Made by a program: the position numbers and the translations under genes. Below, in pieces: positions 155 through 39,306 of a stretch of DNA of 42,102 bases. Origin of the DNA: Rhizaria sp. SCN 62-66 (Eukaryota); NCBI GenBank assembly GCA_001724265.1, contig MEDY01000270.1:1-42102 (forward strand), in the 5' to 3' direction. The notes below the pieces were generated by a model. It worked only from the letters and a program-made list of their open reading frames with translations, was not told where the DNA came from and made no database searches. Each line of letters opens with the position of its first letter. Positions within the stretch are counted from its first letter, which is position 1.

Positions 155-556
155 TTGTGCTCGTGGTTGCGAAAGCAACACCGAATACGCAGCTAAACGG
201 TCGTCGTCCTTATAACGGTTTACAATCAATACAAAAATCTTTCAAAACAAAACCAATCCAACTTCTTTATCTTTATCTACTTGTGATATATCTCTATATT
301 GCAATATTGGTAATACGGCGCAAGATATCTAATGTTTATCGTTGAGCTAGCCGACAATGATGCTGCGAGGCGACGGGCCACCAGGCACAGAGCTTGACAC
401 GCAAGTTGGGTTGGGGATGTTTTGATGTGGCTTATATCCGTGCCTATGTCATAAAACTGGCTGTTAACATATCATAATAGATATGTTGTTTTGCGTTGTT
501 CATGCTCATAAAACGATTTTTCTTATCTTGATGTTCTTGACGTGTAGCGCGGCTCT

Positions 557-3500
557 ATGTCGAAGCCTGCCGCTAAGCCGGCTGCTGCAGCCGCTCCTGT
601 CGTCAACACGCAGGAGCTCGGTGCCAAGGAGAAGGCTATTTACCAGACCATGATGGTAGGTCTTTTATTCTATCTCGCTGCACACTTGGTGGCGCTGCTC
701 ATCTGCTCTGGCGTGCTCCAGCTCCACTTGCAGGGTGGCAGGAGACACATCCTCAGATTGACTCTTCAACTTGCCTCATCTTTCCTTCTCTGCCGCACGT
801 TATAATCGCAGCGCCACATAATGCTAGCTTGCATCATGAATATCCACTTTATATCCTACGTATATTTCTGCTTCTCATGTCTTACATACTAATTCTTACT
901 CTGACGCACATCCCCGCAATCTCACCCACGTTTGACTCCGCGCGCTCACCCTTCTCCTCACAGACTCACTACGAGCACAAGGCATACAACAAGGCCGTCC
1001 GTGAGGCGGATAAGGTCCTCGCCCGCAACGAGAAGCACTGCGAGACGCTCGTAGTCAAGGGCGCGTCGCTGGTACTCGCGGCGCCCAAGGCGAACGTGGC
1101 GCAGAAGGCCGAGGGCTTCGCGCTCATGAAGAAGGGCCTCATGTTCAACCTCAAGTCGTCGACGGCGTGGCACGTGCAGGCGCTGGTGTACCGCGCCGAG
1201 CACCAGTACGCCGAGGCCGTCAAGTCCTACACTATGGCTCTGCGCTTCGACGAGACCAACTCGAACCTAGTCCGCGACCTAGCGCTGCTGCAGGCGCAGA
1301 CGCACGCCTTCGAAGGGCTGGTCGAGTCGCGCCGCAAGCTGCTCATCGCGAACCCGGCTGTGCGCGCCAACTGGTCCGGCTACGCCGTGGCGTCGCACCT
1401 TGCGGGCCGCCACGACGTCGCCGCGCAGACCGTCTCGGCGTTCCTCTCGACGATGCCTCCCGGCGCGGACGGCATGGCGAAGCTGAAGCACGAGGCTAAG
1501 TTCGAGAACTCGGAGATGCACCTGTTCCGCAACGAGCTGCTCGCCGCCAAGGGCGACGTCGCTGCCGCGTACGCTGACCTGGACGCCATCAAGCCCGTCG
1601 TCATCGACACGCTGTCCTGGCACGCGCTCCGCGGCAAGCACGCTCTCACTCTGGGCCACGCTGCCGAGGCCGAGGCGGCGTACCGTTGGCTGCTTGACAC
1701 GAACCCCGAGAACCGGGAGTACTACGACGGGCTCGTCGCCGCCAAGGGGCTCGCCTACACGCCCGCGGCCGCCGCGGCGGGGCTGCCCGAGACGCAGGTC
1801 GCCGCGCTCACGGAGCTTTTCACCGAGCTCAAGGCTAAGTTCCCTAAGTGCCTCACTGTGCAGCGCGTGCCGCTCGACTTCCTTCCCGCCGGCTCGCCCG
1901 CCTTCGCCGCCGCACTCGAGACCTACGTCGTCCCGCGTCTTCGCAACGCCATGCCCTCGCTGTTCCGCGACCTTTCCTCTCTGTACGCCGCCGACGCCGC
2001 GAAGCAGACCGCGATCGGCGCGCTGATGACCGGGTTCGCGGAGAGTCTCCCCTCCACGGGCCGCTTTTCATCCACCGTCGCGCTGCCCGCGGGCGCCTCG
2101 GAAGAGTCCCCCGTTGCCGTACTATGGGTGTTCATCTACCTCGCGTTGCACTGCGACTACGCGGGCGACTCGGCGGCGGCGCTGGTGTGGCTGGCCAAGG
2201 GCCAGGCGCACTCTCCGACGCTGCTGGACCTCAACGTGTTCAAGGCGGGCGTGCTTAAGCACGCGGGCGACGCCGCGGGCGCGTACGCGGCCTGCGACGC
2301 GGCGCGCGTGATGGACCTCGCGGACCGCTACGTCAACACCAAGACGACGCAGTACGCGCTCCAGGCCGGCTGCGACGAGGCCGGTGAGAACACGATGGCG
2401 CTCTTCCTGCGCGACGACATGTCTCTGTTCGGGCTCGTCGACCTCCAGGTGTCCTGGTTCGTGTCGCAGATGGCGCTGTGCTACCGCGGCAAGCCCGGGC
2501 AGTGGCGCGCGCTCGCGCTGCGCAAGTTTAAGGACGTCGAGAACATCTTTGACAGCTTCGTCGAGTCGCAGCTCGATTTCCACCACTATGTGTACCGCAA
2601 GTCGACGCTGCGGGCCTACGCGCAGCAGATGGTGTACCTGGCCAGTGTGCGCCAGCACAAGTTCTACGTCCGCGCCATGGGCGTCGCCGCCGAGCTTTGG
2701 CTCGAGCTCCACGACGAGAAGCTCAAGGCTTCTACTGCTGACGCCGCGGTTGCTGCGGAGCGCGCGGAGATCGAAACGACTGTGATGTCGCGTGCGCAGA
2801 ACGTCGAGCGGTCCAAGTTCATCGCCGAGAGCGAGGAGAAAGCCGCCAAGGCGCTGACCGACACGCCCTTCGAGGCCCCCGACCGCGAGGATACGCTGGG
2901 TTTCGCGCTGATGGACACGGCCGAGCCGCTCGCCGAGGCGGCCCGGCTTGTGACAGTGCTTACCACGGCGTCCGCGGGCAGCGTCACTGCCTCCGCAGGC
3001 GTCTCCCCGTCGGTGTGGCTGCTCGCCGCGCGCGTCCACATGCGCCGCGGCAAGCTGCTGCTCGCGCTGCGTGCACTGCGCCACGCGCGCGCGGGCGCGG
3101 CTGCGCTGGCGGGCGCGCTGGCGACGGGCGAGACGGCCAAGTCCAAGGCCATCGCGGGCGCGTACTGGCCCGCCGTGTTCGGGCTGGCACACGCGCACGC
3201 CGCGACCAAGGCCACCGCGCTGCCCGTGTTCCTCGCGGTCGAGGCCGATGCCGTGGCGGCCGAGCTGCTCGCCGCCGCCGCCGCGCGCGGGCCCGAGGCC
3301 GACGCCGTGTCCGCGGCAGTCTTCGCCGACGCCGTCGCCGCGGGCGCGGACTTCCCCGGCGCCGCCGCGGTCTCCGCGGACGCCGCGGCCGCGCTGGCGG
3401 CCCGCGTCGCCGCGGGCGCGACCCGCGCTGGCGCGAGCGTGCTGGAGCGCGCTGCCGCCGCCAGCGCCGCCGTGCGTCTGTACAGCGACGCGCAGTCGCC

Positions 3501-7888: not shown

Positions 7889-8214
7889 GTCTGATCAAAG
7901 AGGCTAAATCAAAGAACAGTCACTAATGCAAGAGCAGGTATGCGTCGGAGAGACGAACGAAGCGTGCGAAAACTGTGTCAAGAAGAGGCGATTCGTGGAG
8001 GATATGTACATGGTAAGATGAGTCGTGTGAAAAGTAATTTTTTAAATACGGATATTTGTATAGTATTGACGCTTGGTCACGCCTACTGTGCACTATTTAA
8101 CGGACATCCACGTCCGCACACTCAGATCAAAAACAATCTTCACTTCCTCGCCCTCGAGCCACCACAACGATGACTTGTTGCTTGCTGCTACTAGCTTGTC
8201 GATTGATCGCCGCT

Positions 8215-9298: not shown

Positions 9299-11006
9299 CA
9301 GGACCTGAGCAGGGGGCGATGGGCAAGGTCAAGCAAGGGTGGAGCGCGATGAGAATTGACGGTATCAGGGTCATAATTAAAAAAGTAAAGGGTTATCAAA
9401 CATGTAAATTTGCATTATCATACCAGCTCCAAAATTTGACGTTCGTGTGGTGCACAAATCAAACTTTCAGCGGGGCCTCAACTGTCGCATCGCGCCCCAC
9501 ACCGGCTGTCCAGCAGTTGGTCGGTCACCAGTGACGTGGCTACACCTGCGATCTTTCGTCACGATTTCGAGGGGTATATGTGCGCTGATGCAAATAAAAC
9601 AGATGTATTGACTTAAAAAAGTAGGTGTTCTAAAACTGAGGCAGATATTATGAAACGGGGGATACATGTACTCTCAAAGCTAGCGGTAACTACATAGTAG
9701 TGTTAATAATGAGTGGAGGTTGTGGAGTTGTGATTGTGTGAGTGACTATGTGGGGAGGGGGTGATGGCAGGGGTAATAATAGTAGCGGTTTGCGTTTGTA
9801 CGAGCAGAGAACCATTCAAAGTGCTATTGTGTGAGGTTAGTTATGACTTGTGGCTGTGACGCCGTCGCTGCTTCCTGCAACCTATGAGTCAAGTCATGAG
9901 TCTCTTGATGGGAGCGACTATCAGACAACAAGATGCAGTCAGGACAGGGCGATGTAAACAAGCTTGAGAGAGTAGGAGTTTGAGAGTGGTTTGTGAAGAG
10001 AGGGGGATCAAGCGAAGCAACAAACTGTGTGTGTGACTGAAGCAGAGTGATTGCTGAACAGTTGCGATGAAACTATGCTGCGTATGTGATTGGAAGCAAT
10101 CGCAGTGACCACAATGCCACTGCAATGTTGCATGTTAATACACAACTTGTAGCTCCACTATGACCACCGGCAAACGTGTACTTCTAGGGCGCTAAATTCG
10201 ACTGCGAACACGACAATGACTGTGGTAAGTATCATAGTCACATGCGCGTACACATGGATGTCGCGTGGGGTCAATGGGGGTGCTGCTTGCGTAAATTAAC
10301 AGCTAGGTAACAGAGAAAGCAGCACACCCCTGACCCACACATCGCCTATTCGTGCAGCGGCAACGCGAGCCACTTTAAATTGCGCATCACTTTAACTGCA
10401 GCATGGGACGAGACAGCAAAAAGACAACTTGTTCAACGACAGACCGTGCAAACTCGACATGCGTGCGTGCGTGTGTTCATGTGAAAGAAGCGAGAGTCAA
10501 GAGTAAAATAGATAAAGAGAAGCGAGAGAGAGGACGTACAACGTCGCTTGTACTGGTGTGATGTGTTGTTGTGTTGTTGAAATTGTTGTGATGATAGTAT
10601 ATCGTGCGTTGATTCTAGCACTAATCATGTGACAAACAAAATAAAAGAGGACTTACAGATCAAGTAACACAGGAGCAAAAACAAAACAAAAGAGGAGTGA
10701 TGCTACAATCATTATAAAGTAAGACTAGATAAATGCGCGGAGCAACACTCTTTCATTTTTAAAGCAAAAACAAAGACAAAAAGTAATAAAAACAAAAAAG
10801 GCAACCACAAAACAACACATTACTCTCACGTTTAAACTCTCGTAATCTCATATTTTTTTTCTCATTTGCTTCTTTTACACAAGGCACACTTGCGTGTAGC
10901 GCAGTTTGATGACAAGCAGAACAGATCGTGATCGATCGATTAATCGACACGTGCATGCAGTGCGCAACGCGGCCTGAATTATGTAGGCGGCTTAACATCA
11001 ACGCGT

Positions 11007-13685
11007 TCACGCCTTCTGATAGAGCCCGCTGCCGCCCGCGACGGGCGCACGGTCCCTGTACGAGCCCGTGCCAGTGACGCTGAGCCCACCATCGTTGTTG
11101 TTGTTGTTGTTGTTGTTGCTGTTGTTGTTGCTGTTGTTGTTGTTGCCGCGGAGTGTGTTGTAGCCTTGCTGGCGCTGGCCATAGCCGTGCTGCGGCTGCT
11201 GCTGCGGGCTGCCAACGAGCCCGGCTAGCGACGGCAGCGACCCGCCACCGCCACCGCGACCAGTGCCACTCAGCGAACTGCTGCTGTTGTTGTTGCTGCT
11301 GTTGCTGTTGTTGGAGAGCGAGGTCTGCCGCAGCCGCATCGCAAGCGCGGTCAAAGACAGCGCGCCGCTAGCGCCCGCGCCACCTTGCTGCGACTGCGCC
11401 TGGCTGCCGTGACCGGCGCCGGCCTGCTTGCCCTGGCCGTACGGGGACTGATACCGCGCGCTCACATTGCCGCCGCCGCCGCCAGTATGATGCTGTTGCT
11501 GTTGCTGTTGTTGCTGAGCGCGCGCCAGGCCCATGAGCGCGGAGACAGAGGTCGAGGCTGCGAGACCCCCACTGCTCGCGCCGGCACCGCCCGCGCCAGT
11601 GACACCGGCGGCATTGTTGCCGCCGCCGTGACCGGTAGCGATGCGCGGCACGGCGACGGCGCCCGAGGACGTGGCCGTGGCAATGGGCAGGCCCTGGAGC
11701 GACGGCAGTGCGCCCGCGCCCGTGCCATTGACGCCCGCGAGTCCAGGAATGCTGATGCCACCGACGGAGTGCTTGCGGAGCGCGGCGGCGGCGCCCGCTG
11801 CGTTTAGCCCCGGTCCAGCACCGATGGGGCCCGTGAGACCGACGAACGAGCCGCCGTTGGCTTGCGCGTACGCCAAAGCCAGCAGAGACGACGTCGAGGA
11901 CGAGGACGCGGAGGACGAGGACCCGTACAGCCCACCGCCGCCGCCACTGGCGCCGTTGCCGTTCGCGGCGTTGTTGGGGTGGCTGCCGAGCGAGGACGAC
12001 GACGGGGACGGGGACAGCCCCAGCCCCAGGTAATGCGGCGGCGCGACGGCCGCCGTGGGGCTCGCTCCGCCCGCGGCACCGCCGGTGCCACCAAGACTCA
12101 TGTTGCTGCTGTTGTTGCCGCCGTTCGCGCCGTTTGTGGCGAGGTTGTGTGAGGCGCGGAGCGAGTCCCGGCGGCCGCGCGCGGCGGCGGCGGCGGCAGT
12201 GGCGGCGGCCACCGCGGCCGCAGTCGCCGCCGCGCCCGCTGAGTCTGACATCCCACCGCTCGCGTTGGTAGTAGCGCCATTGTTGCTGTTGTTAGCAAGG
12301 GGGTCAACGGATTTGCGACGGGGACGGGACAGACTGGCGCCGGCAGGCACGCGCGGTCCCCCCTCGTTTCCACCGCCGTCTTCGTTGTTGTTGCTGTCGT
12401 TAATTGTGGTGCCCGTGGCCGTGGCGGCGGCGGCGGCCAGGACGGCCTTGCGGGCAGCCACGGCCGCCGCGGCCTTGGACTCGCGCGTCTGCCTCCTGCC
12501 GCCAGCAGCAGCGCCAGCAGCAGCAGCGGCGGCGTTGCTGACAGCGTTGGCATTCACATTCGCGTTGGTGCTGCTGCTGTTCGCACTGGCGCTCAACGCG
12601 GCTGCGGCTGCGGCAGCTGCGGCAGAGGGCGCGACGTTCTTGCTCGGCGACGCAGCTGCATTGCCAGCGCCGCTCGCGCCGGTCGTGACAGATGCAGCAC
12701 CATTGCCAGGCGCGTTGGCGGCGGTGGCGCCGGCGCCGGCGCCAGTGCCACCGCCGGTTTGCGCCGTGGCGGCGACGGCGGCGCCGACGCCCTTGGCCCG
12801 CGTCTCGGCCTCGCGCAAGTCCTTGAAGTAGGCGTGCTTGAGCGCCTGCTTGGCCGTGATACGTTTCTCGGGATCGTACGCCAGCAGCTTCTCGAGCAGG
12901 TCGAGGCAGTCCGGCGTGGCGTGCGGCAGCAAGGGCGCGATGCCGGTGCCCTTGCGCGGGGCCAGGTTGAGCGACTTGAGGTGCGGCGAGTGGCGCTTGA
13001 GGGACTCGAGCAGATGCGGCGGCGGAGTGCCCATAACGGCGTGAATCTTCTCGATCTGATCAGGCTCATTAGTGCCGGGAAACAGTGGGGATAGAGCCAT
13101 GACTTCGAAAAAGACGCAGCCGACACCCCAGATGTCCATTTTGTGGTCGTACATGCCCGATGTGAGCAGGCACTCGGGGGCGCGGTACCAGCGCGTCGAG
13201 ATGTACTCCGTGTACGGTTGTTTGGTGTAGATGCCGCGGCACGAGCCGAAGTCGGCGACTTTGAGCTCGTCGCCGAGTAGGAGCACGTTCTCGGGCTTGA
13301 TGTCGCGGTGGAAGATGCCGTGCTTGTGCATGTGCGCGATGGCCTTGAGGAGTTGGTACATGAGCAGCTTCACCTTCGCAGGGCGCAGATACTGCTTGCG
13401 GCCGCGGATCAGCTCGTAGATGTTGCACTCCATGAGCTCGAACACAAGCGCGAGGCGGCCCGTCTGCTTGTCGAACAAAACCTCCTGCAAGTCGATGATG
13501 TTCGGGTGCGGGTTCAGCCGGCGCAGGGCCTGGACTTCGCGCAGCGCGTTGACTTGCTCCGTTGACTTAAAGTGCGATTTCATGCATTTGACGGCTGAGA
13601 ACTGGCCCGTCACCACCGACTGCGCTTTGAGGACCTCGGAGAAGGTGCCCTCGCCCTTCTTCGCCACCAGGCGGTACTGGTTCAT
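11007..13685 (-). CDS. MOK: MAPK/MAK/MRK overlapping kinase (MOK/LF4-like) with a long low-complexity tail
   Basis: Single coding exon. KKGEGTFSEVLK, HRDIKPEN, DFGSC and YTEYISTRWYRAPECLLT are typical of MOK. About 600 aa of Ala/Gly/Ser/Asn/Gln-rich tail. Confidence 0.92.
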   Translation of the reverse strand: MNQYRLVAKKGEGTFSEVLKAQSVVTGQFSAVKCMKSHFKSTEQVNALREVQALRRLNPHPNIIDLQEVLFDKQTGRLALVFELMECNIYELIRGRKQYLRPAKVKLLMYQLLKAIAHMHKHGIFHRDIKPENVLLLGDELKVADFGSCRGIYTKQPYTEYISTRWYRAPECLLTSGMYDHKMDIWGVGCVFFEVMALSPLFPGTNEPDQIEKIHAVMGTPPPHLLESLKRHSPHLKSLNLAPRKGTGIAPLLPHATPDCLDLLEKLLAYDPEKRITAKQALKHAYFKDLREAETRAKGVGAAVAATAQTGGGTGAGAGATAANAPGNGAASVTTGASGAGNAAASPSKNVAPSAAAAAAAAALSASANSSSTNANVNANAVSNAAAAAAGAAAGGRRQTRESKAAAAVAARKAVLAAAAATATGTTINDSNNNEDGGGNEGGPRVPAGASLSRPRRKSVDPLANNSNNGATTNASGGMSDSAGAAATAAAVAAATAAAAAARGRRDSLRASHNLATNGANGGNNSSNMSLGGTGGAAGGASPTAAVAPPHYLGLGLSPSPSSSSLGSHPNNAANGNGASGGGGGLYGSSSSASSSSTSSLLALAYAQANGGSFVGLTGPIGAGPGLNAAGAAAALRKHSVGGISIPGLAGVNGTGAGALPSLQGLPIATATSSGAVAVPRIATGHGGGNNAAGVTGAGGAGASSGGLAASTSVSALMGLARAQQQQQQQQHHTGGGGGNVSARYQSPYGQGKQAGAGHGSQAQSQQGGAGASGALSLTALAMRLRQTSLSNNSNSSNNNSSSSLSGTGRGGGGGSLPSLAGLVGSPQQQPQHGYGQRQQGYNTLRGNNNNSNNNSNNNNNNNNDGGLSVTGTGSYRDRAPVAGGSGLYQKA
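11094..11144. repeat. Coding (AAC)n triplet repeat giving poly-Asn in the MOK tail
   Basis: (GTT)n on the + strand; translates as NNNNSNNNSNNNNNNNN. Confidence 0.9.
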
Positions 13686-14648
13686 CGTGTGCGCGCCAGT
13701 GCGGGGCCGATGGGCAGAGCGGGGGAGTGCGGAAGGCTCCGGAGAGCGGGCGCGTGGGGCGTTGAAGGACCTGGAAGCGCTTAGTTAGTCCTGACGCGGA
13801 CGCGGGCTGCGAGAGGGCCGGAGAAAGGGGAGAGCGCGGGCGCGGGCGCGGCGGATTGGCCTGGGCGCCGCAGCGCGCGGAGGGGGAGCGGGGGAAAAGC
13901 GCCGGACGGGCGGTGGGAGTCGCTGGGAGAGACCTGAACACGCAGAGGCGCTTACTCAAGCTGCCTGACGGTCTGGGAGGGTTTGCAGCAGAGAAGCTCT
14001 GACGCTGCTGGGAACGCAGAGAAGACGAGGGTGAAAACAAGACAAAAGTATGAGCGAAAAACCACACCGGGTCGCACAAATACACTGTGGATATGGTACA
14101 CGGTGATACAGGACAAAGCTAGAGCGAAGGGATTGTGGTGGAACCACGAAACTCATCCTGGGGTCGTCCTCCTCGCGATGAGTCGACTTTATACCAAACA
14201 TAGACCACATGGTACAATGCTGAATAAAAAGACAACGAATCACGGAGAGATATAGCTCATACTACAATTTGACAGCAGACCACGAAGATATGACGGCGAA
14301 TTTGGCTAAATCAGACGAGCAGTTACTCCCGCCTCCGAAAATGCTTCTTTTCCTTGCTTTCGGCCCTTTTTCACGAACCAGACCAGGCCCAGACGGCGTG
14401 GTTTGGCGCAGCTATTTGCACCACGCATATCTCGTTATTACATCGTCAGTTCACTATCTAGCACGCTTATTGCAACTGTTGGTGGGCGTTTCTATTAGTT
14501 TTATCTATGCTGTCTAAACAGACAAGACTCATGTCTTGTTTCTCAGCACGCCCTTGCATTCCCGTCGTCCTTCTGTGTTCGCCAAGCTCACATGTTGCCC
14601 CTGTTTTCAACTCTGCCACCACCCCCTTGTTCCACCAGCGTTTCTCCG

Positions 14649-26374: not shown

Positions 26375-26407
<33 letters not shown>

Positions 26408-26826
26408 TTGTTGTTGTTGTTGTGCACACTGTCGTTGTAAGAGGCGGAGTTGAGCGCGGTTGCGTCGTCATCGTAATCCGCGGCAAACTTACTATTCGTA
26501 GTCGTCGTCGTCGTCGCAGTAGCAGTCTTGGAGTCTGAACTAAAGCTCGATCTAGAGCTAGAGTTGGCACTGTTCGCAGTTGCAGACACAGACGCAACAG
26601 AGAGCTGCGAGAGCTCTGCGGCCACCGATGTAGGCGCGGTCGCACCAGTTGCGGCACTGGAGGTCGACGAGGACGCGCCAGTCGCACTTGCAGTCGGTTC
26701 AGTGGAATCGGCAGAGGAATCAGTTGTGGTTGCGGCAGCCTTCTTCGCGCCCTTCTTCTTGAACGACACGGGGGCGGCCGCGGCCGATGCTGACCCGGCA
26801 AGGGGGTCGAGCAGGTCGTAGTCCAT
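20851..26826 (-). CDS. GCFC-domain protein (PAXBP1/GCFC2/ILP1-like spliceosome disassembly factor), greatly expanded
   Basis: 1991-aa single ORF. VFAGAAPDLVHLSPLLSHLAAWRAAAPASY...RWRPL...LPWY...DEDADLVPML...WEPM matches the GCFC domain. N-terminal YGPKELAALR and PDDATVAAL..ARRRR resemble conserved family motifs. Confidence 0.8.
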
Positions 26827-27355
26827 CGGTGAGGATGTTTTGTGTTGCGAACCTATTACGGGATGGTGCTGTGCAGCGCGCTTTGTAGTGGATCAAACCA
26901 GAGGGCAACGGCTGTGTTCTACGGTGAGAGGAAAAGAGGAATAGACAAACAAGGAGTGAGCAAATGAAAAGATTAAAAGCAAATTACATATAAAACATAC
27001 GTTTAATTATCATATGACTATTCCATGTGCTCGTGACGGATCTAGCATGTAGCAATTCGTAATCCCTTCAGGCTGATTCGACGGCTCCCCAACGCCAAAC
27101 TTCTTGCTCTCGTTCGCATTCATCTCCGCACCACGGACAAATACACAGATATATCTATGATACAAAACAGATAGCGACTCATTTCAGAATATAGTACATT
27201 TCATGGGTTGGCATATACTTAAAATATGAGTTCTATTGTATACGAGTGATTTGTCCCCGACAAAAAGAGACACTTGGCCTTAGATAAAACAACTAGATGA
27301 TATGATATACTCTCTACCTTTACATACGCAGGTGTTGATCGCAACTCGAAGCTGT

Positions 27356-29179
27356 TCACTCGCTGTCGTTCTCGCCATCCTTCATACTAGCAGCAGCATC
27401 AGCAGCAGCAGCCACCTCCTTCTTGCCCTCCTGCTGCTTGTTCTCCTTGGACTTGTTGTTGTGCTTGTTGTCGTTGCGGTTGTTGCCGTCATGCGTGCGC
27501 TTCCTGTCGTTGTTCTGGCGCTCACGCGGATTGTTCGCCTTGTTATTGTTCCCCGCAGCGGCAGTCGCAGCGCCAGCGCCAGTGGCAGCGCCAGCGGCCT
27601 CGTTGGCCTTGGGCTTCATCGCCTGGACCTCGATGTGGCGGTTGTTGCACACGAGGAAGGCCCACTTGCGCGCCTCACGGATACGCTTCTCGCGCTCAAA
27701 CCGCGCCACGCGCTCAGACTTCGCGGCTTCATCACTATCGGCGTCGTTGGCTGCCTTGAGCTCCGCCAGCGCAGCCGCGTCCGCCGCAGCGGTCTCGGCG
27801 TCCATGTCGTCGTCGTCGTCGCTGCCCGCGCCGTCCTCGGCGGTCTTCTTAGCGGCGGCGGCATCCTTCTTGGTGCCGTCTGCGCCTGCAGCGGTGGCCG
27901 CAGCAAACTCGGCCATCTTGCCGTCGACGCGCGCGCGGCCGGTCTGCCAGCGGGTCAGCACAGCGCGCGCGGTGCCAGGCTTGGCGAACGTCACGAACAT
28001 GAAGCCCTTGAACGCGTTGTCGGCCTTGGGCACCAGACGCAGCTGCGTGATACCGGCCTCGGCGAGGAGCGCCTTTGCTGACTCAGCGCGCGCGAGACGG
28101 CGCGTGTACAGAGCAGCGCGGTCGAGGCCGGTGCTCGCGGCCGTCTCGGCGGCCACGTCGGCCGCGATGAGGTTCGCGATCAGCTCGGGGCCCGTCGAAC
28201 GGTGCGTCGCCGCCTTGGACTTCGACTTAGCAGCCTAAACAGATCACAACAGAAGATGAAGATGAGTTAGATGCGGGGGTACATTTCACATCGTTGTAAT
28301 AAATCGCATTGTCATGCATATACCATCATAGTTTCTTATAAAAAGTTAGTTAGAGCAAGATATTGCGAAAAATGATGTGGAATGACATACCTGGGCGGCA
28401 GCGGCGGCGGCGGTGGCGGCCTGCTTGGCGGCGATGAGCTCGGGGAAAAGCTTCGAGGGCGCAAGCTTGGCCTCGACCATGTTGGCGACGATCCAGCGCG
28501 CGAGCGTGTAGTAATCATTCTCAAACGCGAAGTTCATCATGTAGAGCGTGCTGCCCGCGCTCTCGCAGCTCGTGTCCTTGACGAGTGCAGAACCCACGGC
28601 ACCCATGAGGACGGAGTGCGGGTTCACCGCCTTGCCAGACGCGCGGCGCATCACGGCGTTGACCGCGCTGGCGGGCGCGTTACGGCCCACGGTGCGCGCG
28701 AGGGCGGTGGCGGCCGAGGCAGTGCGGGCGTCCTGCGAAGTCGAGGCCATCTGACCGACGAGCTTGGTCAGAGCAGCGATCTGGGCCTTGAGGGCGTCAA
28801 CGCTCGCGTTTGAGCTGCTGGAGTCCTTGCCCTTGCTGTCCTTGTGGTCGGAGCGGGGGCGCTTGACCTGGGGAGCAGCGGCGTCGGACTCGGCTGCAGC
28901 AGTCTCGGTGGCGGCGGCGGCCGGGGCGGCCGGGGCGGCCGGGGCGGCAGCGGCAGCGGCAGCAGTGGAGTCGAACGTAGAATCGTCAACGACGGTGATG
29001 GGCTTCTTGTTCTTCTTGTCAGCAGGCACAAGAGGCTTGGAAACGTCAACGTCGACGGTCGCGGTGGCCGCGGAGTCGGCGGAGTCGGCGTCGGCAGAGT
29101 CCTTGGGGCCGCGGTTGCGGTTGCGGATACGCTTGCGGGCGGCACCGGTAGCGGCGTCATTTACGGGAGAATCAGACAT
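27356..29179 (-). CDS. RRM-domain RNA-binding protein with basic/charged tails (possibly nucleolar)
   Basis: Exons 29179-28391 and 28234-27356; intron GTATGT...TAG. RNP2-like TLYMMNF, RNP1 KGFMFVTF, and beta4-like NRHIEV. Confidence 0.7.
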
Positions 29180-29639
29180 CGAGATAAGTAGTTACCTAGC
29201 GATGCGGAATGTATCACTCCAGCGGGCTAATGCAAAAGAATGACGCGATTTGCGAGCCGCCTCCTGAGCGCTTCGCTCCGCCCGTCCGCAACTTTTTTTC
29301 GGAACGAGCTAGTCCGAGACTAGAAGGATTACTTCGCGCTGAGAGCTGCTCAACGTCACCGAGCGAGCAGTTCGTCACAGGACGAGGCCTGAACGACGAG
29401 TTCAGTATGCGGGCTACATTTCGAATTGGCTGTCGTCAAGCGCGGGTTTAATTGCACATACCGATATAAGCATTCTCGAAAAACTTTAATGTTTTACAAG
29501 CTGCTTATCACTGATTGTCTTACCAGAATTTCATGCTCCGAACAACTCACCCCTCCCCCTCGCTCTCTGCCGCTCTGCCCTACCGCGTCCACCTGCTATC
29601 TTATTTCTCGTTCACCGCTGCGACTGCGCGCAGAACGAA

Positions 29640-30135
29640 ATGTCCACCAAGGCCTCTAAGTGGTCCGCGTCGAAGAAGGAGCTGTCGCTGAAGCCCGTCG
29701 GCACGGACGTGGTGCAGCCCATCCCGCAGTACACCATGGCCCCTAAGGCCACGCCTCACAAGAAGAACTTCTTCGCTCAACGTACGCATTCATACCACAG
29801 TCAATTATTATATCGGTGCGATATAATATCAAATATTACGTCGGCCTTATAGACACGCAGTTTCACTTTAATTGAACGTTGTTTGACTTCGATATCCCTG
29901 TTTCTGTCCATACTCACGCTCACTCAAACGGTTTTCCATCCTTACTATTTCCCCCTGCTCTGCACTGCTCCGACTGCCTTTTGCGCGCGCAGTTTGGTAC
30001 CGCTGGACGCTAATGACGACGTTTGCGCTGCTGGATTCGTGGGAGATCTTCGTTGCTCATCTGTTCATGGCTGTGACCTTCGCCACCGCCGTCTACTACA
30101 GCTACCAGGGCCTCAACTCCATGGGTGCGCTCTAA
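29640..30135 (+). CDS. Serine palmitoyltransferase small subunit (ssSPT)
   Basis: Exons 29640-29781 and 29993-30135; the second exon's coding frame is absent from the ORF track. Spliced product ...FFAQLWYRWTLMTTFALLDSWEIFVAHLFMAVTFATAVYYSY fits the ssSPT L(E/D)xWE plus transmembrane pattern. Confidence 0.8.
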
Positions 30136-30817
30136 AGCACCAGTCAAGCCTGCTAAACGCAACGCAAACGCACGAATGCCATTGAGACACTTTAATCACG
30201 CGTGATATATGCAGCTTAATGTGAGTTTATTTCACGCAACGCTTATTTAAGCTTGATAAACCGCTTTTATGCATGCTGAATGAGCGCCTGCTGAGCTCGC
30301 TTGTGCGTTGCCGGCAAGTCTCCAGTCTCTTTTCTGTTCGGTCATGGTTTGCGCTACTGCCATATCCGGTCCTTAATTTGCACCATGTGTTGTGTGGAGC
30401 TGTTTTAGACGAACCAACTCCCCCTTTTGTGACATAGTTTTATACCCTTCTCAGGCTCGGTGCGCCTTAAGCGGCCGAGCGCATACAAAGAAATCCGCAT
30501 TAATATAACTTCAAACACATATAAAACAAAGAATTATATAATTTTCCACTTGATCTTGCATATACTTGAGTAATACACTAGTTGGGCATGATATAAACCG
30601 CTTTAGAAGTTGAGTTAGATCTGAAAGTTGTTTGTGGTGAAATGATGCTTCGTTGCGGTTTGGACGAGAACGAGAAGAAGCGAAAAGAGGTGTGCGCAAA
30701 TATAGACTTTCACATGATTGCCGACGTCAAAACAAGCTGTATCCAGCTTAATCGTTATTTTTATGTGCGCTCACACTCAAATTTGTTTTATTTATTTCTC
30801 CAACAGTCGCGCAGAGT

Positions 30818-31673
30818 ATGGTGCAGACGAGCAAAGACAAGGTGTCCCGCGTGCAGCAAGGCATCAAGTCTGAGCGCCCGCGCGTCGACCCCTTCGGCGG
30901 CCGCCGCAAGTGCGCACCGGTGCAGAAGTACGTCGCACCCGAGGAGCGCCGCAAGACTGCCGCGATTAACAACAACATCGCGAAGATCATGGCGAACCGT
31001 GTTATTCACGAAGGTGGCGTGTTGAAGCTTCTGAAGGACAAGAAACAGGGCGCAAACGTCGAGGAGTTCCACAAGTCTGGTCCCCACATCACCGGCGTTC
31101 AGACCAAGCTCCGCGCCGGCCAGAACGCTCGCCGTCGGTACGTTACTTGCCCGCATTCTCATATACTTCGTTTTATTTCTGTTTCACACGTATTCTCTCT
31201 GCTTGCTCTCGCGTCATTCAAGTCTCGCTCACTCTTTCCGATTTCCTTCGCTTTCTCTCATATACAGTGCCAAGGCCGAGGCGCATCAGGCGCTGGTGCA
31301 GAAGGAGGTCAACGACGAGATTGCCGAGCTCGAGGCCAAGCGCCGCGCGAATCCCTACGCCGACGCCCCCGTCAAGCGCAAGCCCCGTTTGCCGGTGCCC
31401 TCCTTCAACCCGCTCGCGGACGACGACGTAGCGGGCGACTTTTTCGGGACCGACGACGAAGCCGAGACCGACGAGAGCAAGAAGGCTGTCGACGAGGAGG
31501 CGGACAATGCCCAGGCCGAGGCTGCTGCGAAGGCGGCGGCGGCGGTATCTAAGGGCAAGGGAAGTAAGGGCGCTGCGGCGGGAACGGTGGGGATGAGTAT
31601 GCCTGCGCGCAAGAGCGGATTCCGCGGTGTGACTGACGCTAAGACGGCCGCGTTGCTTGAGGCCGATTTCTGA
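30818..31673 (+). CDS. UPF0390/DUF2462 (C19orf53-like) protein with C-terminal extension
   Basis: Exons 30818-31137 and 31268-31673. MVQ start, GGRRKCAP and TAAINNNIAKIMANR...GVLKLLK resemble the UPF0390 core. Confidence 0.6.
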
Positions 31674-32371
31674 GCGAGCTACAGAGATATACCGTGCAAG
31701 TAATGCCCAGGCGACTCGACTGTCAGTCTTGTCGTTTTACTTTGATGTCGTTTTACGACCTGTTCAGACTCGAGACAGCAGCAGCTGCACAGAGAGGCTA
31801 TGAGTAGCCAGCGCGGAGTGTTGTTACTCTAACATCACGTATACAGTAATATAGGGCCACCCATGAAAGCAATGAGACTCCAAATACACCCACATAACAC
31901 ATTTCACGTTTCAAACACAACTTGACTGAAGTTCTTGGGTTGGATAAAAACTGCGTAGTTGGTTTGTATTATAAATATATCATACAAATCTGAATAATAA
32001 TATGTTGTTTGTACTTGTTTTTGTTTCTTTGTTGTTCAAAATAGATAACACTGACCATGTCTCACGACTCATGACACTTGAACTTTTGGTTTCCAGTGTC
32101 TACGCAAGCAAGACGAAGGCCGTTTTGCCCCTTATTCATAGCATCCCGTTGTTCAGACGCCACTTACAAAGAGCTGTCTCTCAAACCCCTTCCAAAGTCG
32201 CCACTCGCTGATCTTTTGCTCTTGCACTCACATTTTGCATCTCAAACAAGTCAACGTTACAAAAGCGCAGCAATGTACAAGTGTGCATTAGCAACGATCG
32301 CGAGCGACACAGCGATTAAAGCCCTGCTGATGCAGATATTGCCTGTGTAGTAGTGATATTTCGCATTGACT

Positions 32372-33270
32372 TTACCGCTTGACGAAGGCGAAGCGCTTGC
32401 GGGCCTTGGCGAAACCGGTCTTCTTGCGTTCCACGGAACGCGGGTCACGACGAAGCATGTGCGCGGGCTTCAGCAGCGGGCGCATCGCGGGGTCCAGGTT
32501 CTGCAGCGCATTGGCAAGCGCGTGGCGGGCAGCACCAGACTGACCGACCTTGCCACCACCGTTGACGGTGATGAACGTGTCGACCTAAGGCGAGGAGAAA
32601 CCACAGAGGTGCATGCAGAGAAGAGAGCGTTAGTATTCGTATGTGAGGTTTGAAGCACTAGATGACTACATATGATACTGAAACATATACAGTAGATACA
32701 TAACATAGATGCGTTATGCGCATATAATTCATAGACTATCGCAGTACTGTGATTCATTAGGGATGTAATAGAACGTACCTGGGACGAGATGCCGCAGAGG
32801 AGCAGGGGCTCGAAGGCGTGCATGCGCTCCTCCATCGACGCGAAGTACTCCGAGTAAGGAATGCCGTTGATCACGTGCGCGCCGGTGCCGGGCTTGATGT
32901 GCGCAAAGGCGCGCGCGCTCTTGCGAGAGCCGGGGGCCTGCGCGACGCCGAACTCGTCGACGAGACGGAGACGGGCGCGGGCGGGCACAGTCTGCGTGCG
33001 GAACGACGTGGGCTTGTAGAGGTACTCGGAAAGCTCGGCGTACCAGTCCGCGGACTTGATGTCGGCCTGCGAGAGCAGGGAAGGAGGTGCGATGTGGGCG
33101 GACTTGTTGCGCAGCATCGAGTACTGGTCGTTAGGGTTCTCGTACCTGGTGAGTTCCTCGACGGTGGGCACGTAGTGGGGGTCGAACGTCGCCGCGCGCG
33201 CGGGGACGACCACGGCGCCGCGCAGCAGCTGCGACGCCACGGGACGGGCCTTGATCAAGCCACGGAGCAT
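32372..33270 (-). CDS. MRPS9: Mitochondrial ribosomal protein uS9m
   Basis: Exons 33270-32779 and 32584-32372. Presequence-like MLRGLIKAR; S9 motifs GSRKSARA, GGGKVGQSGAARHALA and RDPRSVERKKTGFAKARKRFAFVKR. The intron contains TACTAAC. Confidence 0.93.
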
Positions 33271-33733
33271 GGGGTCTGCAGGGAGCAAATGGAAAATGAA
33301 CAGGGAAGCAAGGGAGGGCGAAGGGCGGTGAGGCTTGGGTGGGACAGACCAGCGAAAGCGTGAGGGTGCAACGGGCACGCCACAAAAGGAGTTGCGCAAC
33401 GCATTTCACAATTGCAATAATATGTGCAGATAGAGATGGCTAACAAATTCTTCAGAGCTGTTTTTAAATGCTATTCTACCCACGGACATGGGAGCATGAA
33501 GCGCTTCAAATGTCGCGCTGTGGGAGCGTTGAGAAGTCTTTTCCGAAGACTTTTTGCGAACTCGCCGGCTGCGACAACAGAGCGAAGAAGGGTGAAAATA
33601 GGTCTTCTTTGAAGATCTCTAGTGCACTCTATTGTTCGTCAATATCTCTGCTGTTGGAGAATCTTTTAGATTGCTGACTTGACTCACTATTATTTTGTTT
33701 TCACCCCATTATTTGCGCTATAGCGTTCGGTGT

Positions 33734-34608
33734 ATGACAACATACCTCGAACTGTACCTCGATCTCCTCAAGGGTACGTCTTCGACATCTTTTTCTGTCT
33801 CAGAGCCTCTGATCTTCCTAGCACACTCCACTATCTTACTGACGCTCTTGTCATGTTTTATATTTGTAGGATTGCCTAACGATTTCATGCGCAACATGGC
33901 TCTCGTGGGTGTTCTCGACCAAAAGGTCGATGAGCTGAAGCCTCAGATCGAGGCTACTTCGGAGCCTATTACGGCCAGTGCGTCAACAAGCGCACGCCGT
34001 CTTGGTGTACGTTCAAACTCATTTTGTTTAGGATGTATCTACCATTTTAGCGCACATATTTGCATTTGAAAACGCTGAGGTGTTGCTGAGATCTCTGCCT
34101 CCCTAGTACCCGTATCCCCCAGCTTTCTTTCACTTACTTCCCATCCTTTTATCTTCGCTCTCACTTCACCATCACTCTTCACACTTTTTAGACCGACGAG
34201 TTAAGCGAGCTGACACGATTACTAAAGCTACGGCGCGACCGCGAGCGACTGGCGGGCGATATGTCGCTCGAAAAAATCGGTACCATCGACCAAGCTACGC
34301 TTTTGATTCAATCTTTCGTGGATAAACTCGACGAAGACCTTAAGAGTTTCGAACAAGACCTCGACCCGCACGTGCTGGCCAGCATCATGGAGGAAGAGGC
34401 CGCCGAGGCGCAGCGTACGGGCGAGTTTGGCGCGCTGCCGGCCTCGGCAGCGGCCTCCGCAGCATCTGCCAGTGCAGCGCACTACCTCTCTGGCGGATCC
34501 GGCGGCAACCGCAGTGGCGGCGGCGGCGGCGGCGGCTATGGCGGCGGTCACGGCGGCATGGCGTCGCACCAAGTGCTGCAGCAACAGGCACAGATGCAGC
34601 AGATGCTT

Positions 34609-34671
<63 letters not shown>

Positions 34672-34790
34672 TATGGCGGCAACGGCGGCCGCTACACTGG
34701 CGGCGGCGGCGGCGGCGGCAGCGGCGGGGCTAGTCTCAGTCGTCAGGGCACGGCGGTGACCGCTTCGAGCACCGCCAGCGGCCGCAGCGG

Positions 34791-34821
<31 letters not shown>

Positions 34822-35235
34822 GGCTCTAGTGGTGGCCGCGGCCGCGAAATGAACGACGGTGATTACAGCGGCGGCAGCAACTACGCGTACCAGCAGCAGC
34901 AACAGCAGCAACAGCAACAGCAACAACAGCAGCAGATGTACCGCCAGCAGCAGCAGGCCGCCGCGGCGCAGGCGCAGGCGCAGGCGCAGGCCGCCGCCGC
35001 CGCCGCCGCCGCTGCCCACGCCGGCGCCAACGGATCGGGCGGCGGCGGTGCTGCTGAGGTGTATTGCTTCTGCGGGAACGACTCTTCCGTGGCTGATGAT
35101 ATGATGATCGGCTGTGACAACGATGAATGCCGCATCCAGTGGTTTCACCTGGCGTGTGTGGGGCTCAAGAAGGCGCCGGTGGGCGCGTGGTACTGCCGCG
35201 AATGCACCAACCAGGGAACCTACGACCGCGCGTGA
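33734..35235 (+). CDS. ING-family (inhibitor of growth) PHD finger protein
   Basis: Exons 33734-33773, 33870-34006 and 34192-35235. N-terminal YLELYLD..LPNDFMRNMALV..LD and EKI..LDEDL; C-terminal PHD YCFC..MIGCDNDECRIQWFHLACVGL..GAWYCREC; poly-Q/G/A linker. Confidence 0.93.
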
Positions 35236-35671
35236 TGTGAAAGCATGTGCGACGACGACGTATTCATTACCCTGGCTGCTCGCTGTGTCGACGTCATCCG
35301 GCGTTATAGTCTGCCAACTCCGGCGTCACAATATCGGCAGCAGGCCTGTTTATTTCTTTCTTTTATCTAGTTTCACTTTGTTCACGTGCCCATTTTCAGG
35401 GCAAGGCAAAGCCAATGGTCGTTTAGCTTGACCATCGCAATGGACATGTTTCGCTTTACGGTATGCATTACTGATCCTGTTGTTCTCAGTACATCATACT
35501 CGAACATCTTCACTGTGTCACGATCAATGAGACCGAACCTTCTCTGGTCACATTTCAATGATGATAGTCTAAGGAATTGACATTAGAATCAATGTGTTTA
35601 TTCTTCAAAAATAACGACTTTCTATACATCTGTGTACATTAATATTCATTCTACTGACCTTCAGCCAGGAG

Positions 35672-35732
35672 TAGAAATCCCGGGTTTCAAGACACCTTTT
35701 TACAACACAAAAACTGAAACCCGGGATTTCTA
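35672..35732. repeat. Perfect 18-bp inverted repeat with 25-bp spacer (MITE-like remnant)
   Basis: TAGAAATCCCGGGTTTCA (35672-35689) and TGAAACCCGGGATTTCTA (35715-35732) are exact reverse complements. Confidence 0.9.
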
Positions 35733-35848
35733 TGACTGACTTTACAATTTGGACTCTATCTATAGTGAACAAGATTGCGTGTCGAACTTGGACTCAGTCC
35801 AATTGCGTTCTTTGTCTCCTGCTTGCTCGACTCACACAGAGAGTGTGC

Positions 35849-38396
35849 TCACATCTCCACCTCGGCCTCTGCGCGGTGGCAACTCGCAGTTACACAGAGG
35901 AAGCGCGCCTTATGCGGCGCACAGTACGTATGCAAAAACGTCAACAAGTGGTCTACAGGTGCCTTTTCGCCCTCGATCAGGACGTCGACGCGGTACGTCG
36001 GCACGGCGATGCCGTTGACCGTGAGCGCGGACGATACGTTCTCCTCGTCGACGATGACCGTCTCCTCAACATCGCCCATCGGCGACTTCATGTACTTGAA
36101 GCGCATGACGCCGAGGCGCTGGAGCACGTGACGCGCGACACGGTCACAGCGCAGACGCAGACGCGGAGTGGTGACGAGACCGACGTCAGAGTACCGGAGG
36201 TCGACGGGGTCGGGCAGGTTCGCGGAGTTGAAGATCGCGCTCAGGTGGTTCGGCAAAGAGCCGTTCAGCGTCAGCTAAGAAGCAAGGAATAACGAGAGAC
36301 GAAAAAAGAGAGAGCGAGCGTTCAATAACAGAGGCGAAGAGCATGTTAGTGAGCATGTTAGTGAGCATGTTAGTGAGCATGTTAGTGAGTCTACGTGAGA
36401 TAGGCAGTCAAAAAAGTCATTGAGAAGATAAAAACTGCAAATTATCACAACAGATCAGATCATTCAACATTGATTGAGTGGAGTTAGATCATAATTGCGC
36501 AAATTATAGCGTACGTTAAGGAATCCTGCGTAGCAGACGTATTCGCGGGTGACGACGGGCTTCGCGAAGTACGGCTCGGTGATCTTGCAGCGCGCCTCGT
36601 AAATGATGCGCTTGGTCGACACACGGTGGCCTAGCACGCCGCCGCCGAGCGCCTTGAGCGGCAGTGGCTCGGGAACGTAGACGATCGAGTCGTACTCGTC
36701 GCTGCCGGCGTAGTTGAGACGGATGATGGGTAAACGGCCGTCCTTGACCTTGTCGCTGTTAATGCGCGTGTAGAAGCTGTTGTGCGGCTGGATCTTCTTG
36801 AAGAGCACTTCGGCGCCGTAGCGGGAGTAGATCTCACACGTCGCGTCGAAAATCTCGCAGATGGCTTGGAGATCCAGGTGGTCCGCGAGGGCGGCGTAGT
36901 CCGAGTCGCGCATCGCCATGGACTTGACGCGGAGATAGTACTCAAAGTCGATGTCAACAAACTGCTCAAAGTAGTCCTTGTGCTGGATGATGTACTCGTG
37001 GGCGATCTTGCGCACGAACTGCCAGTTATCGGTCGACCCGAAGAGTTGGTGAGAAAGCGCCGAGTACAATGACACGCCGCCACCTTTGGACATGCGGACG
37101 ATGCGACACTTGTTGCGCGTGAAGAGCATGTACTCCCACTCGAGCTGCCGGTGCTCCGCAAGCAAAGACGCGCCGTCGCGCCAGTTGAGCACGTGTCGCT
37201 CGCAAAAGGCGACTTGGTCCTCATCGCGCGGGAAAAAGCCGTTCTCGAATATGCGGACGGGGATGGGGGACGCGGAAGACTCGAGACGGCCGCTCATGGT
37301 CAGGATTCCGGGCTTGAAGTTGTCCGCGCTCTGCTGCGCGTCGAGGTTCGAGTCGGTGTTCAGGTTCAACCGCAGCCAGAAGCCGTTCTTGAACGAGTTC
37401 GCGGCGTAGCCCGAGAGGATGATGCGGCCGAGGTCGAAGAGCGTAGAGCCAACTAGCGGCAGCATTTCACGGAACTCCAAGAAGAACGGGTCCGTCAGCG
37501 GGATGCGGCGCAGGCGGCTTGAGTTCTTGCGCACGTAGATGGGCGGGATGTCGGCCTTGACGCACTTGAGTTTGACGTCGAGCAGGTCTTGCTCCTTCTT
37601 GCGCTTCTCCTCCTGCAGGATTTGCACGCGCTGCCCGTGCGTGGCCTTGCGCATGATGCGCGAGCGCAGCGCAGCCTGCTGTGCCGTCAGCTCGGCCGGC
37701 TTGTACTCGGCCATGACTTCGATATACTTGTCCCAGTCCATGGGCCGGAAGATGTAATAGAACGCCTCGGCGCCGACAACGATGCCACGCACCCAGCGAC
37801 CGGACGACGGATCATAGCACTCGGCCTCGGAAGACGGGGTGAAGATCTGCACCGGGTACCCCACGGTCTGGATGCGTTGGATGTGCGGGTTGAAAGGCTC
37901 CGGCGCGGGCGCAATGTTTAACACCTATTCATAAATCGAGGCACAAAGAATAGAAACATAGGAAGGCTTGGTGCGTGAGATATACATTCGTGAAAATGAT
38001 TGCAAAATAGTTGTTTCAATGCGTCCGTTAAGTATTATCCAGATTTGGGTTGATCTTTGCCTCTAATGGATCTAAGTTAATGTGTTTCATGTCGTTGTTG
38101 AAACGTACGAAGTCTGTGGTTGCGAACTGCTGCTCGGACAGGAAATAGCGTGCCCAGCGAATGGACATACGCGGGGACATGCCCTTCTCTTCCAGCAGCT
38201 CGAGCAGCCACGCGCGCTGCACGGTGCCCGAGATGGGGTGCTGCGCATTGACGAGCATGCGGCGGCCGCGGTTGCCGGGCTGTGAGCGCCAACGGTTGTA
38301 GTAGGCCTTGAACGAGGGAACGTCCATGACGTCGTCGAGCCGCAGCGGGCCCGACTGCTGCTCGCCGTAGGACGACTTGGAGGAGCTGCTGCCCAT
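35849..38396 (-). CDS. OTU-like domain protein lacking catalytic residues, predicted N-myristoylated (about 707 aa)
   Basis: Exons 38396-38109, 37924-36515 and 36274-35849, all phase 0 with GTACG donors. Starts MGSSSSK. OTU scaffold: SLYSALSHQLFG..VRK..YI..YFEQFV..FEYY..DHLDLQAI..IRLNY..YDSI. Confidence 0.8.
36339..36389. repeat. 12-bp tandem repeat (GAGCATGTTAGT)x4 in intron 2 of the OTU-like gene
   Basis: Four exact copies at 36339-36386 plus a partial copy. Confidence 0.95.
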
Positions 38397-39306
38397 GGTC
38401 GACGCCGCTCAACTGCGCTGGTCAGCTACGATAGGAAGGCGAAGAAGGCTGTTGGTGGCTTACCACAACAAGAACAGACTCAGCGAGGAGTGCTGGCTGG
38501 TTCTGAGAAGCGTTACACAGTGCAGCGCAGTAACAGCGCCTTGTTAAAACGAGGAGAACGCGCTGGCTCGAGCTGGAGCGGTGCGCTGGCTCTGAGCGCA
38601 GGTGTTTGCAGAGGCCGCCGAGAGAGGCGAGTGAAGGTGTGAAAGGAGCGTGCGCGGGGACGTGTAGAGTCGCGCAAGAGTCACTCAGGGGAATGAGTGC
38701 GTGAGGAGCTAAACAAGTTCAAGGACAGATACGGCGTTATGCGTATGAGCGAGCGTAGACACGCGTAGTTGCGGGACGGAGGCGGATAGTTGGGGGGCGG
38801 GTGTAGTCGGACGATACCTTGTGGGGCCGAGGGGATACAAAAGGAAAGCTCAGATGGGCAGGGCAGACGACAGTTCAAATAAAAAAGTAAACACAAATAC
38901 AAATCTCAACAAGGCGTCTAATAAGCTGGGATAGAAATGACTTGACGCTCAAATATATGCGTGTGACACTGTTCTTTGGCCTCGTCAAATCCCCTTTGTT
39001 TGTCGTTCTTCTCACTCCCGTTCCAAATCGGTCGGTTCGCAAAAAAGCTCGGACTGGCTGTCGCTTTCGTGATGACTAAGGCTAGGATATTGATTTCGCA
39101 CCACGATCCTTCTTTTTCCGACTGTTGTTTTGGCCCAAGACCCATTTGCACAAAGTTGAATTGGTGGATAATTCCCAAATCTATTTCAGTTCATCCGCTT
39201 TACTGCCACATCTATCTTGATTGCTATAGCCCGCTCACCTATGCTCCTTGCCTTTCTCGGTTCTGTCTACCTGATATCTCGTGCACTTAGACCCGCTTCC
39301 CGCCAG

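Follow-up and report, generated by a model that had tools for sequence, protein, structure and literature searches.

Candidate spliced-leader acceptor sites in front of start codons on a contig of a wastewater eukaryote

Acceptor-like sites in front of the start codons

The window analyzed here is contig MEDY01000270.1 (assembly GCA_001724265.1, filed under Rhizaria sp. SCN 62-66) at its full length of 42,102 nt. The elements in question are pyrimidine-rich tracts that end in AG directly in front of most of its start codons, and that may accept a spliced leader (SL) in trans. The contig was eukaryotic, with GC-rich exons (about 60–70% GC) and AT-rich introns and spacers. Fifteen complete genes were modeled by coordinates, and each spliced reading frame was confirmed to be open. 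Pfam matches supported NAA15 (NatA auxiliary subunit, E 2e-113), TAM41, a protein kinase, a CAF1A-like protein (CHAF1A), a PHD/ING-like protein (ING) and an OTU-domain protein. The kinase was of the MOK type, as judged from its closest homologues. The names PEX11, CX9C, ssSPT, UPF0390, MRPS9, RPN2, GCFC and TFIIF-like are putative labels given from reading the translations; PF00380 was present on the gene call of MRPS9.

The gene models contained 19 internal introns of 96–308 nt, which served as the reference for splice signals. Their donors were very uniform: 15 of the 19 were GTACG, and the remaining four were GTAGG, GTGCG, GTTCG and GTATG. The one GTTCGT donor belonged to PEX11. All 19 introns had G at +5 and ended in YAG, and the exon ended in AG before the donor in seven. 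The pyrimidine content before the YAG ranged from 56 to 84%, and was at least 64% in 17 of the introns.

An acceptor-like site was defined as a YAG with at least 64% pyrimidine in the preceding 25 nt, lying no more than 16 nt upstream of an ATG. This combination of YAG and pyrimidine fraction replaced a 32-position acceptor matrix built from the 19 introns, which was dropped for its noise (−0.6 to 17.4 in leave-one-out tests). The sites in front of the start codons are given below, with the branch-like motif CTNAY where positions were noted.

NAA15, 520–547, plus strand: tract 520–544 and TAG 545–547, 9 nt before ATG 557; CTNAY at −43 and −26
TAM41, 7891–7931, minus strand: CAG 7893–7891, 2 nt before ATG 7888, and TAG 7906–7904, 15 nt before it; tracts extend to 7931
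PEX11, 9305–9332, minus strand: CAG 9307–9305, 6 nt before ATG 9298
CX9C, 14611–14638, plus strand: 80% pyrimidine tract and CAG 14636–14638, 10 nt before ATG 14649
CHAF1A, 20391–20418, minus strand: AAG 20393–20391, 9 nt before ATG 20381; atypical, as none of the 19 internal introns uses AAG
ssSPT, 29606–29633, plus strand: CAG 29631–29633, 6 nt before ATG 29640; an RNA contig match begins at 29632
UPF0390, 30779–30814, plus strand: CAG 30804–30806 and CAG 30812–30814, 11 and 3 nt before ATG 30818; CTCAC at −37
MRPS9, 33276–33303, minus strand: CAG 33278–33276, 5 nt before ATG 33270; RNA contig matches end at 33278 and 33277
ING, 33696–33723, plus strand: TAG 33721–33723, 10 nt before ATG 33734; CTGAC at −50 and CTCAC at −41
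RPN2 (ribophorin II-like), 39263–39306, plus strand: TAG 39288–39290 and CAG 39304–39306, 16 and 0 nt before ATG 39307

An earlier note, made from the letters of this DNA, had named these ten sites, and each was found at the position and distance it gave. Six genes fell outside the definition: the kinase, GCFC, a gene designated X, the TFIIF-like gene, OTU and CHAF1A, the last because of its AAG. The kinase had no AG within 40 nt of its ATG, and in OTU the YAGs lay 21 and 29 nt away.

Acceptor-like sites were thus present in 9 of the 15 genes, as compared with 6% of random 17-position intergenic windows on either strand (binomial P 3.5e-8). Raising the pyrimidine threshold to 68% left 8 of 15 genes (P 1e-8), and raising it to 72% left 5 of 15 (P 8e-6).

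The tracts also carried the other marks of an intron 3′ end. Nine of the ten tracts and 18 of the 19 internal introns had a CTNAY 10–70 nt upstream, as against 27% of intergenic positions picked at random. Shuffles of the tracts with matched composition contained it in a mean of 5.4 of 10 (P 0.021). The earlier note had pointed to CTCAC and CTGAC motifs and to a likeness to the 3′ ends of the internal introns; both impressions held. The last letter was also specific. After a tract near an ATG, YAG outnumbered YAA, YAC and YAT by 11 to 8 gene-hits, as against 80 to 363 in other intergenic DNA (Fisher P 2e-4). The sites therefore resembled the intron 3′ ends of this genome in three independent features, namely the CTNAY motif, the pyrimidine content and the G after YA.

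Chance, or a general bias in the composition of 5′ regions that leaves the AG without function, might also be considered. The sample was small (15 genes on one contig), and the thresholds were picked after the data had been seen. On the other hand, the excess was significant at all three thresholds (P 1e-8 to 8e-6), the G after YA was specifically preferred, and RNA contigs ended within one letter of two of the sites. We regard this explanation as highly improbable.

The tracts could also be core promoters, each made up of a pyrimidine patch on the sense strand and, behind it, an initiator-like YA(+1)G. Transcription would then start at the A, the 5′ untranslated regions (UTRs) would be 2–18 nt long, and any extra letters on the transcripts would be artefacts. 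Core promoters of plants have pyrimidine patches upstream of their transcription starts and follow a pyrimidine/purine rule at −1/+1. Such a promoter would require no donor. Against it stands the resemblance of the tracts to the intron 3′ ends of this genome on three counts together, and 5′ UTRs of 2–4 nt (RPN2, TAM41) would, we infer, be unusual for an organism whose genes are otherwise conventional. The upstream regions showed neither a shared promoter word nor a TATA-like element at a constant spacing, and the 7-mers and 8-mers they had in common were at the level of shuffled sequence. This explanation is unlikely, but has enough in its favor to be taken up again with the RNA contigs.

Two of the genes listed call for remark. 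The start of TAM41 lay only 326 nt from the stop of PEX11 on the same strand, so that 7889–8214 must accommodate the 3′ UTR of PEX11, any promoter of TAM41 and the acceptor tract of TAM41. The CHAF1A-like gene had an in-frame TAG (20232–20234, minus strand) at codon 50 of the frame from ATG 20381. The flanks were open and coding-like on both sides, and an in-frame stretch of 78 nt (GTGAGT...CAG) would excise the TAG. It may represent a small intron rich in GC or an error of the assembly, or the gene may start elsewhere.

Donors upstream of the start codons

A donor matrix was built from positions −3 to +8 of the internal introns, which scored 5.2–13.1 against it in leave-one-out tests (median 8.8). 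It was applied to the GT sites of the spacers, as the earlier note had proposed. The upstream-sense set comprised the sense strand up to 450 nt before the 15 start codons, 6,579 nt in total.

GTACG, the dominant internal donor, was absent from the 6,579 nt of this set, in agreement with what the earlier note had found by eye, and occurred seven times in the rest of the intergenic DNA (13,877 strand-nt). Sites scoring at least 5.2 numbered 31 in 20,456 strand-nt, or about 0.6 per 400 nt, and the upstream spacers had about the same density. At a threshold of 6.5 there were 12 intergenic donors in all, five of them upstream-sense, on about half of the strand space. GTTCG gave the eye an impression of enrichment upstream, but its count there (10 in 6,579 nt) did not differ significantly from that elsewhere (14 in 13,877 nt; P 0.22). 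The upstream donor-like sites were thus at background density, and GCFC was the only gene on the contig with an upstream donor of internal-intron strength.

The candidate donors are as follows.

GCFC-like gene, 26919–27000, minus strand: probable 5′ UTR intron of 82 nt, GTATGT at 27000 (score 9.0), acceptor TAG reaching to 26919; distance to ATG 26826 about 92 nt
PEX11, 9423, minus strand: candidate cis donor GTATGA, 119-nt intron, score 6.8
ING, 33634, plus strand: candidate cis donor GTTCGT, 90-nt intron, score 6.8
TAM41, minus strand: candidate cis donor GTTCGT, 68-nt intron, score 5.9
CHAF1A, minus strand: candidate cis donor GTATGT, 90-nt intron, score 5.1
UPF0390: candidate cis donor, 115-nt intron, score 4.2
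RPN2: candidate cis donor, 272-nt intron, score 5.3

The first and third of these had been mentioned in the earlier note as weaker donors. Both were present, and the one at 27000 proved to have the strength of an internal donor. The GCFC-like gene therefore probably has an ordinary cis-spliced 5′ UTR intron, as judged from its splice signals. Its acceptor was about 92 nt from the ATG, not 0–16 nt, and this set the donor-less sites apart as a class.

These candidates bear on the possibility that all the sites end ordinary 5′ UTR introns, each with a gene-specific non-coding first exon and a weak or unusual donor (GTTCG, GTATG or GTGCG). GCFC offered a convincing case. Candidates stood at intron-like distances for the other six genes listed, and four of the 19 internal introns, including the one with GTTCGT, used donors other than GTACG. 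On the other hand, NAA15 had no upstream candidate scoring at least 3.0, and CX9C, ssSPT and MRPS9 had none reaching 5.2, the score of the weakest internal donor. Several of the candidate introns (62–90 nt) were shorter than all the internal ones. Together with the background density of the upstream sites, this makes a general explanation by cis introns improbable, although it accounts well for GCFC.

Elsewhere in the intergenic DNA, the 1.7-kb spacer between the start of PEX11 and the stop of the kinase (9308–11006) held no gene model and was partly purine-rich on the plus strand. It contained two GTACG on the minus strand, at about 10245 and at 10539 (score 8.1), and an unannotated exon or a non-coding RNA is possible there.

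RNA contigs at the 5′ ends

The RNA-type evidence consisted of assembled contigs of four runs (X1–X4) placed on 19700–39699, in which the starts of the molecules themselves are not visible. X1 and X2 came from the same sample and are possibly a single data set deposited twice, and X3 was polyA RNA. The contigs of X4 ran colinearly through introns and spacers, and X4 was therefore taken to be DNA-like. Stretches without RNA cover were not counted as evidence.

Spliced contigs of X1 and X2 confirmed three internal introns, all GT..AG, with joints at 29781→29993, 31136→31267 and 32582→32777; the shorter side of these joints had 81–255 letters.

Among the contigs listed, those of two genes reached the 5′ end. 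For ssSPT, record 7 of X2 (432 letters) matched 29632–29781 (record letters 275–424) and 29993–30247. It carried 8 non-genomic letters at its 5′ end, and 19 letters beyond 30247 at its 3′ end, possibly a poly(A) tail. For MRPS9, record 4 of X1 (908 letters) matched 32196–32582 and 32777–33278, followed by 16 unmatched letters, and the match of record 9 of X2 stopped at 33277, followed by 4 unmatched letters. In both of the genes whose listed contigs reached the 5′ end, the match to the genome thus ended within one letter of the predicted AG, with the AG included. The 5′ overhangs beyond the AG were 4–16 letters long.

The two AGs were therefore the ends of the genome-colinear mRNA in spliced contigs that went on into non-genomic letters, as trans-splicing predicts. 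Two explanations fit the inclusion of the AG in the match. Either the upstream partner also ends in AG, as do 7 of the 19 exons here, or transcription starts at the A.

The second of these would suit a core promoter. Both X2 matches began at the A of CAG (29632 and 33277), which needs no coincidence if transcription starts there. Unmatched contig ends also occurred away from splice sites, as in the 19 letters at 37539. The X1 contig of MRPS9 spoke against it, for it matched one letter further (33278) and had 16 extra letters, and all the overhangs would have to be dismissed as artefacts.

With respect to cis splicing, the contigs cut both ways. The overhangs of 4–16 letters were too short to be placed on a local exon. 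A GAG/GTATGT site 470 nt upstream of MRPS9, antisense to exon 1 of ING, would end an exon in AG, as the X2 contig requires. On the other hand, the ssSPT contig matched through the AG, yet neither of its candidate donors followed an AG, and the 460-nt spacer of ssSPT contained no AG/GT; the MRPS9 spacer had none either. No joint from a local upstream exon to these AGs was present among the 15 of 35 joints that were listed.

For the remaining seven genes in 19700–39699, none of the RNA contigs listed extended to the 5′ end. None of the RNA contigs listed was colinear through a tract; this was seen only with the DNA-like X4. A search of the protein collection for a transcript-derived MRPS9 protein, with an N-terminus translated from the 5′ UTR and a leader, recovered nothing beyond the genomic gene call of the window itself. 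Relatives of the MOK kinase from transcript contigs had N-termini that began at Met, with no leader.

Other features of the contigs may be recorded here. Contigs of X1 and X2 ended at 30247, 31770 and 32196, downstream of ssSPT, UPF0390 and MRPS9, and two of these ends had 3–19 unmatched letters beyond. They are likely poly(A) sites, with 3′ UTRs of about 100–190 nt. A contig of the polyA RNA run X3 (37885–38265) was colinear through the OTU intron 37925–38108, which may reflect intron retention, DNA in the library or a mistaken intron call. The second OTU intron contained about four head-to-tail copies of a 12-nt unit (36340–36395). In the spacer upstream of RPN2, X4 had a 9-letter insertion at 39195, plus a few single-letter differences elsewhere. 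X4 represents a closely related strain that is nearly identical in the spacers.

Long low-complexity coding tracts were present in the tail of the kinase (11007–13685) and in the ING-like gene (34440–35040), with runs of Gln, Asn, Ala and Gly from CAG, CAA and GCN repeats. These tracts drew unrelated contigs, giving false joints, and spurious isrG matches in Rfam.

Possible spliced-leader trans-splicing and known systems

The presence of acceptors without donors was real and far beyond chance. Two things spoke for splicing of some kind: the sites resemble intron 3′ ends in three ways, and letters foreign to the genome follow beyond the AG. On what we consider the best explanation, about two thirds of the genes have a functional 3′ splice site at their 5′ end, namely these AGs.

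That the donor lies in trans was suggested by several observations. Donors of normal strength were absent upstream, although the internal donors are very uniform. The acceptors crowded within 0–16 nt of the ATG, unlike that of GCFC. The ssSPT spacer offered no AG/GT, and the overhangs were short. Of the features by which SL trans-splicing is recognized, an acceptor at the start of the genome-colinear mRNA was seen, and so was an outron, with weak donor candidates remaining in it.

SL trans-splicing onto these AGs is accordingly the single most likely reading, although it is unproven and we would place it somewhat below an even chance. Transcription would begin somewhere in the AT-rich spacer. 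The spliceosome would recognize the branch-like CTNAY, the pyrimidine tract and the YAG as it does in the internal introns. A separate SL RNA would provide the donor in trans, since the upstream sequence lacks a 5′ splice site, and the mature mRNA would consist of the leader, 0 to 16 nt and the AUG. The leader would end in AG if it is the source of the two letters at which the contigs still match the genome; at its longest, the overhang is 16 letters plus AG or CAG. We infer that the upstream partner is one shared leader. Put as a whole, and as a tentative proposal that falls a little short of being probable, a free-living wastewater eukaryote without a close named relative would trans-splice a leader of about 20 nt ending in AG onto about two thirds of its mRNAs. 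Its genes would be monocistronic and distributed over both strands, with ordinary cis introns of the GTACG type.

The provenance and the relationships of the organism were as follows. Public runs containing this sequence were labeled wastewater and activated sludge. NAA15 was 31–36% identical to any named protein and 57–61% identical to unnamed environmental proteins. Scans of metagenome_contigs and genome_contigs with NAA15, as a single protein and then as an alignment, yielded one distant locus at 34% identity and did not recover the relatives at 57–61%. The kinase domain of MOK was 70–77% identical to unnamed environmental sequences. Its best named match was a chrysophyte strain (taxid 483371), but many named lineages were alike at 65–68%. 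A look-up in the protein atlas yielded no informative taxa.

A number of observations weighed against SL trans-splicing. No 5′ leader shared among mRNAs was seen; the loose ends listed with their letters (24 of 587) did not include those of ssSPT and MRPS9. No SL-RNA-like gene or Rfam SL family was found in the 42-kb window, although a negative over 42 kb says little, and of its 12 intergenic donors with a score of 6.5 or more, not one was followed by an Sm-like site. The RNA support came from two genes of one sample, X1 and X2 not being independent. The MRPS9 contigs stopped differently (X1 at 33278, X2 at 33277), so that the letter before the AG may differ. The 19 unmatched letters of record 10 beyond 37539 lay inside an OTU exon, where there is no splice site, so that a short overhang may also arise as an artefact of the assembly or of adapter sequence. 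Cis donors for PEX11, ING, TAM41 and CHAF1A, and the GAG/GTATGT upstream of MRPS9, must be counted here as well. In addition, an 8-mer starting with GTTCGT, that of the internal PEX11 donor, recurred upstream of ssSPT and ING. Several of the explanations may also hold side by side, PEX11 and ING having cis introns, for instance, while other genes are trans-spliced.

The Rfam scan of the window returned low-complexity chance matches only (isrG on CAG repeats and a weak mir-1954 on a hairpin) and no snRNA, and ARAGORN found no tRNA in the window. The hairpin was a near-perfect inverted repeat 3′ of the ING-like gene (35660–35744), and its microRNA-precursor match was at chance level (E 0.98).

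The earlier note had suggested that this organism may trans-splice most of its mRNAs. The donor-less acceptors, and the contigs bounded by AG in two genes, supported the suggestion in part; a shared leader and, within the window, an SL RNA gene did not come to light. The word "most" rests on 9 or 10 of the 15 genes of one contig. The note had also proposed inspecting the 5′ ends of transcripts at these AGs for a leader in common: the ssSPT and MRPS9 matches did stop at the AG, and a common leader was not seen among the loose ends listed.

SL trans-splicing has a patchy distribution among eukaryotes, and neither where it came from nor what it does has been settled (PMC5619915, PMC9399869). If it occurs in this organism, it would represent a further independent origin, in a lineage known only from environmental sequence. 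Coming from an uncultured protist with strong cis signals and no operon-like gene order, it would also be a data point on how often SL trans-splicing arises and whether operons are needed. In such genomes, gene prediction and the calling of start codons would have to allow for an acceptor close upstream of the ATG. A known leader would make it possible to recover the mRNAs of this organism from metatranscriptomes of wastewater. Should the sites be transcription starts instead, they would define a promoter type that mimics intron 3′ ends, which would likewise be relevant to annotation. No paper linking spliced leaders with wastewater protists was among those that a literature search listed.

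Like these sites, ordinary 5′ UTR introns have a branch-like motif and a pyrimidine tract ending in YAG in front of the start codon, and GCFC resembles one. The sites here differ in that nine of the ten lack a donor of internal strength and in that the acceptors lie within 16 nt of the ATG.

The outrons of nematodes have an acceptor, consisting of a pyrimidine tract and AG, a few nucleotides upstream of the AUG, and no 5′ splice site upstream. This contig is like them in the placement of the acceptors, in the proportion of genes (about two thirds) and in the conventional cis introns of the same genes. It differs in that the organism is unicellular, in that the leader and the SL RNA gene were not seen, and in that no sign of operons was found in the window, where the genes alternate strands and same-strand spacers are 326–1,708 nt long.

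Paulinella micropora, as described in PMC6053224, is likewise a free-living protist with cis introns. Experiments there established the 33-base leader, the genes for it and the transcription starts, and PCR ruled out long-range cis-splicing. The calmodulin gene has an AG acceptor at the site of leader addition, and the leader is absent from the locus of that gene. This contig, by comparison, is known from its sequence and RNA contigs only. According to the same paper, leader sequences are not conserved between phyla, so that no known leader can serve as a probe here.

In cryptomonads, PMC5619915 reports that one fifth of the genes or more are trans-spliced, with cis introns and no substantial operon structure. 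That conclusion rests on 5′ sequences shared across the transcriptome, unlike the case made here, and with NAA15 so distant from any named sequence (31–36% identity) the contig is not placed near them. The picture here is similarly mixed, with acceptors in front of 9 or 10 of 15 genes and no operons.

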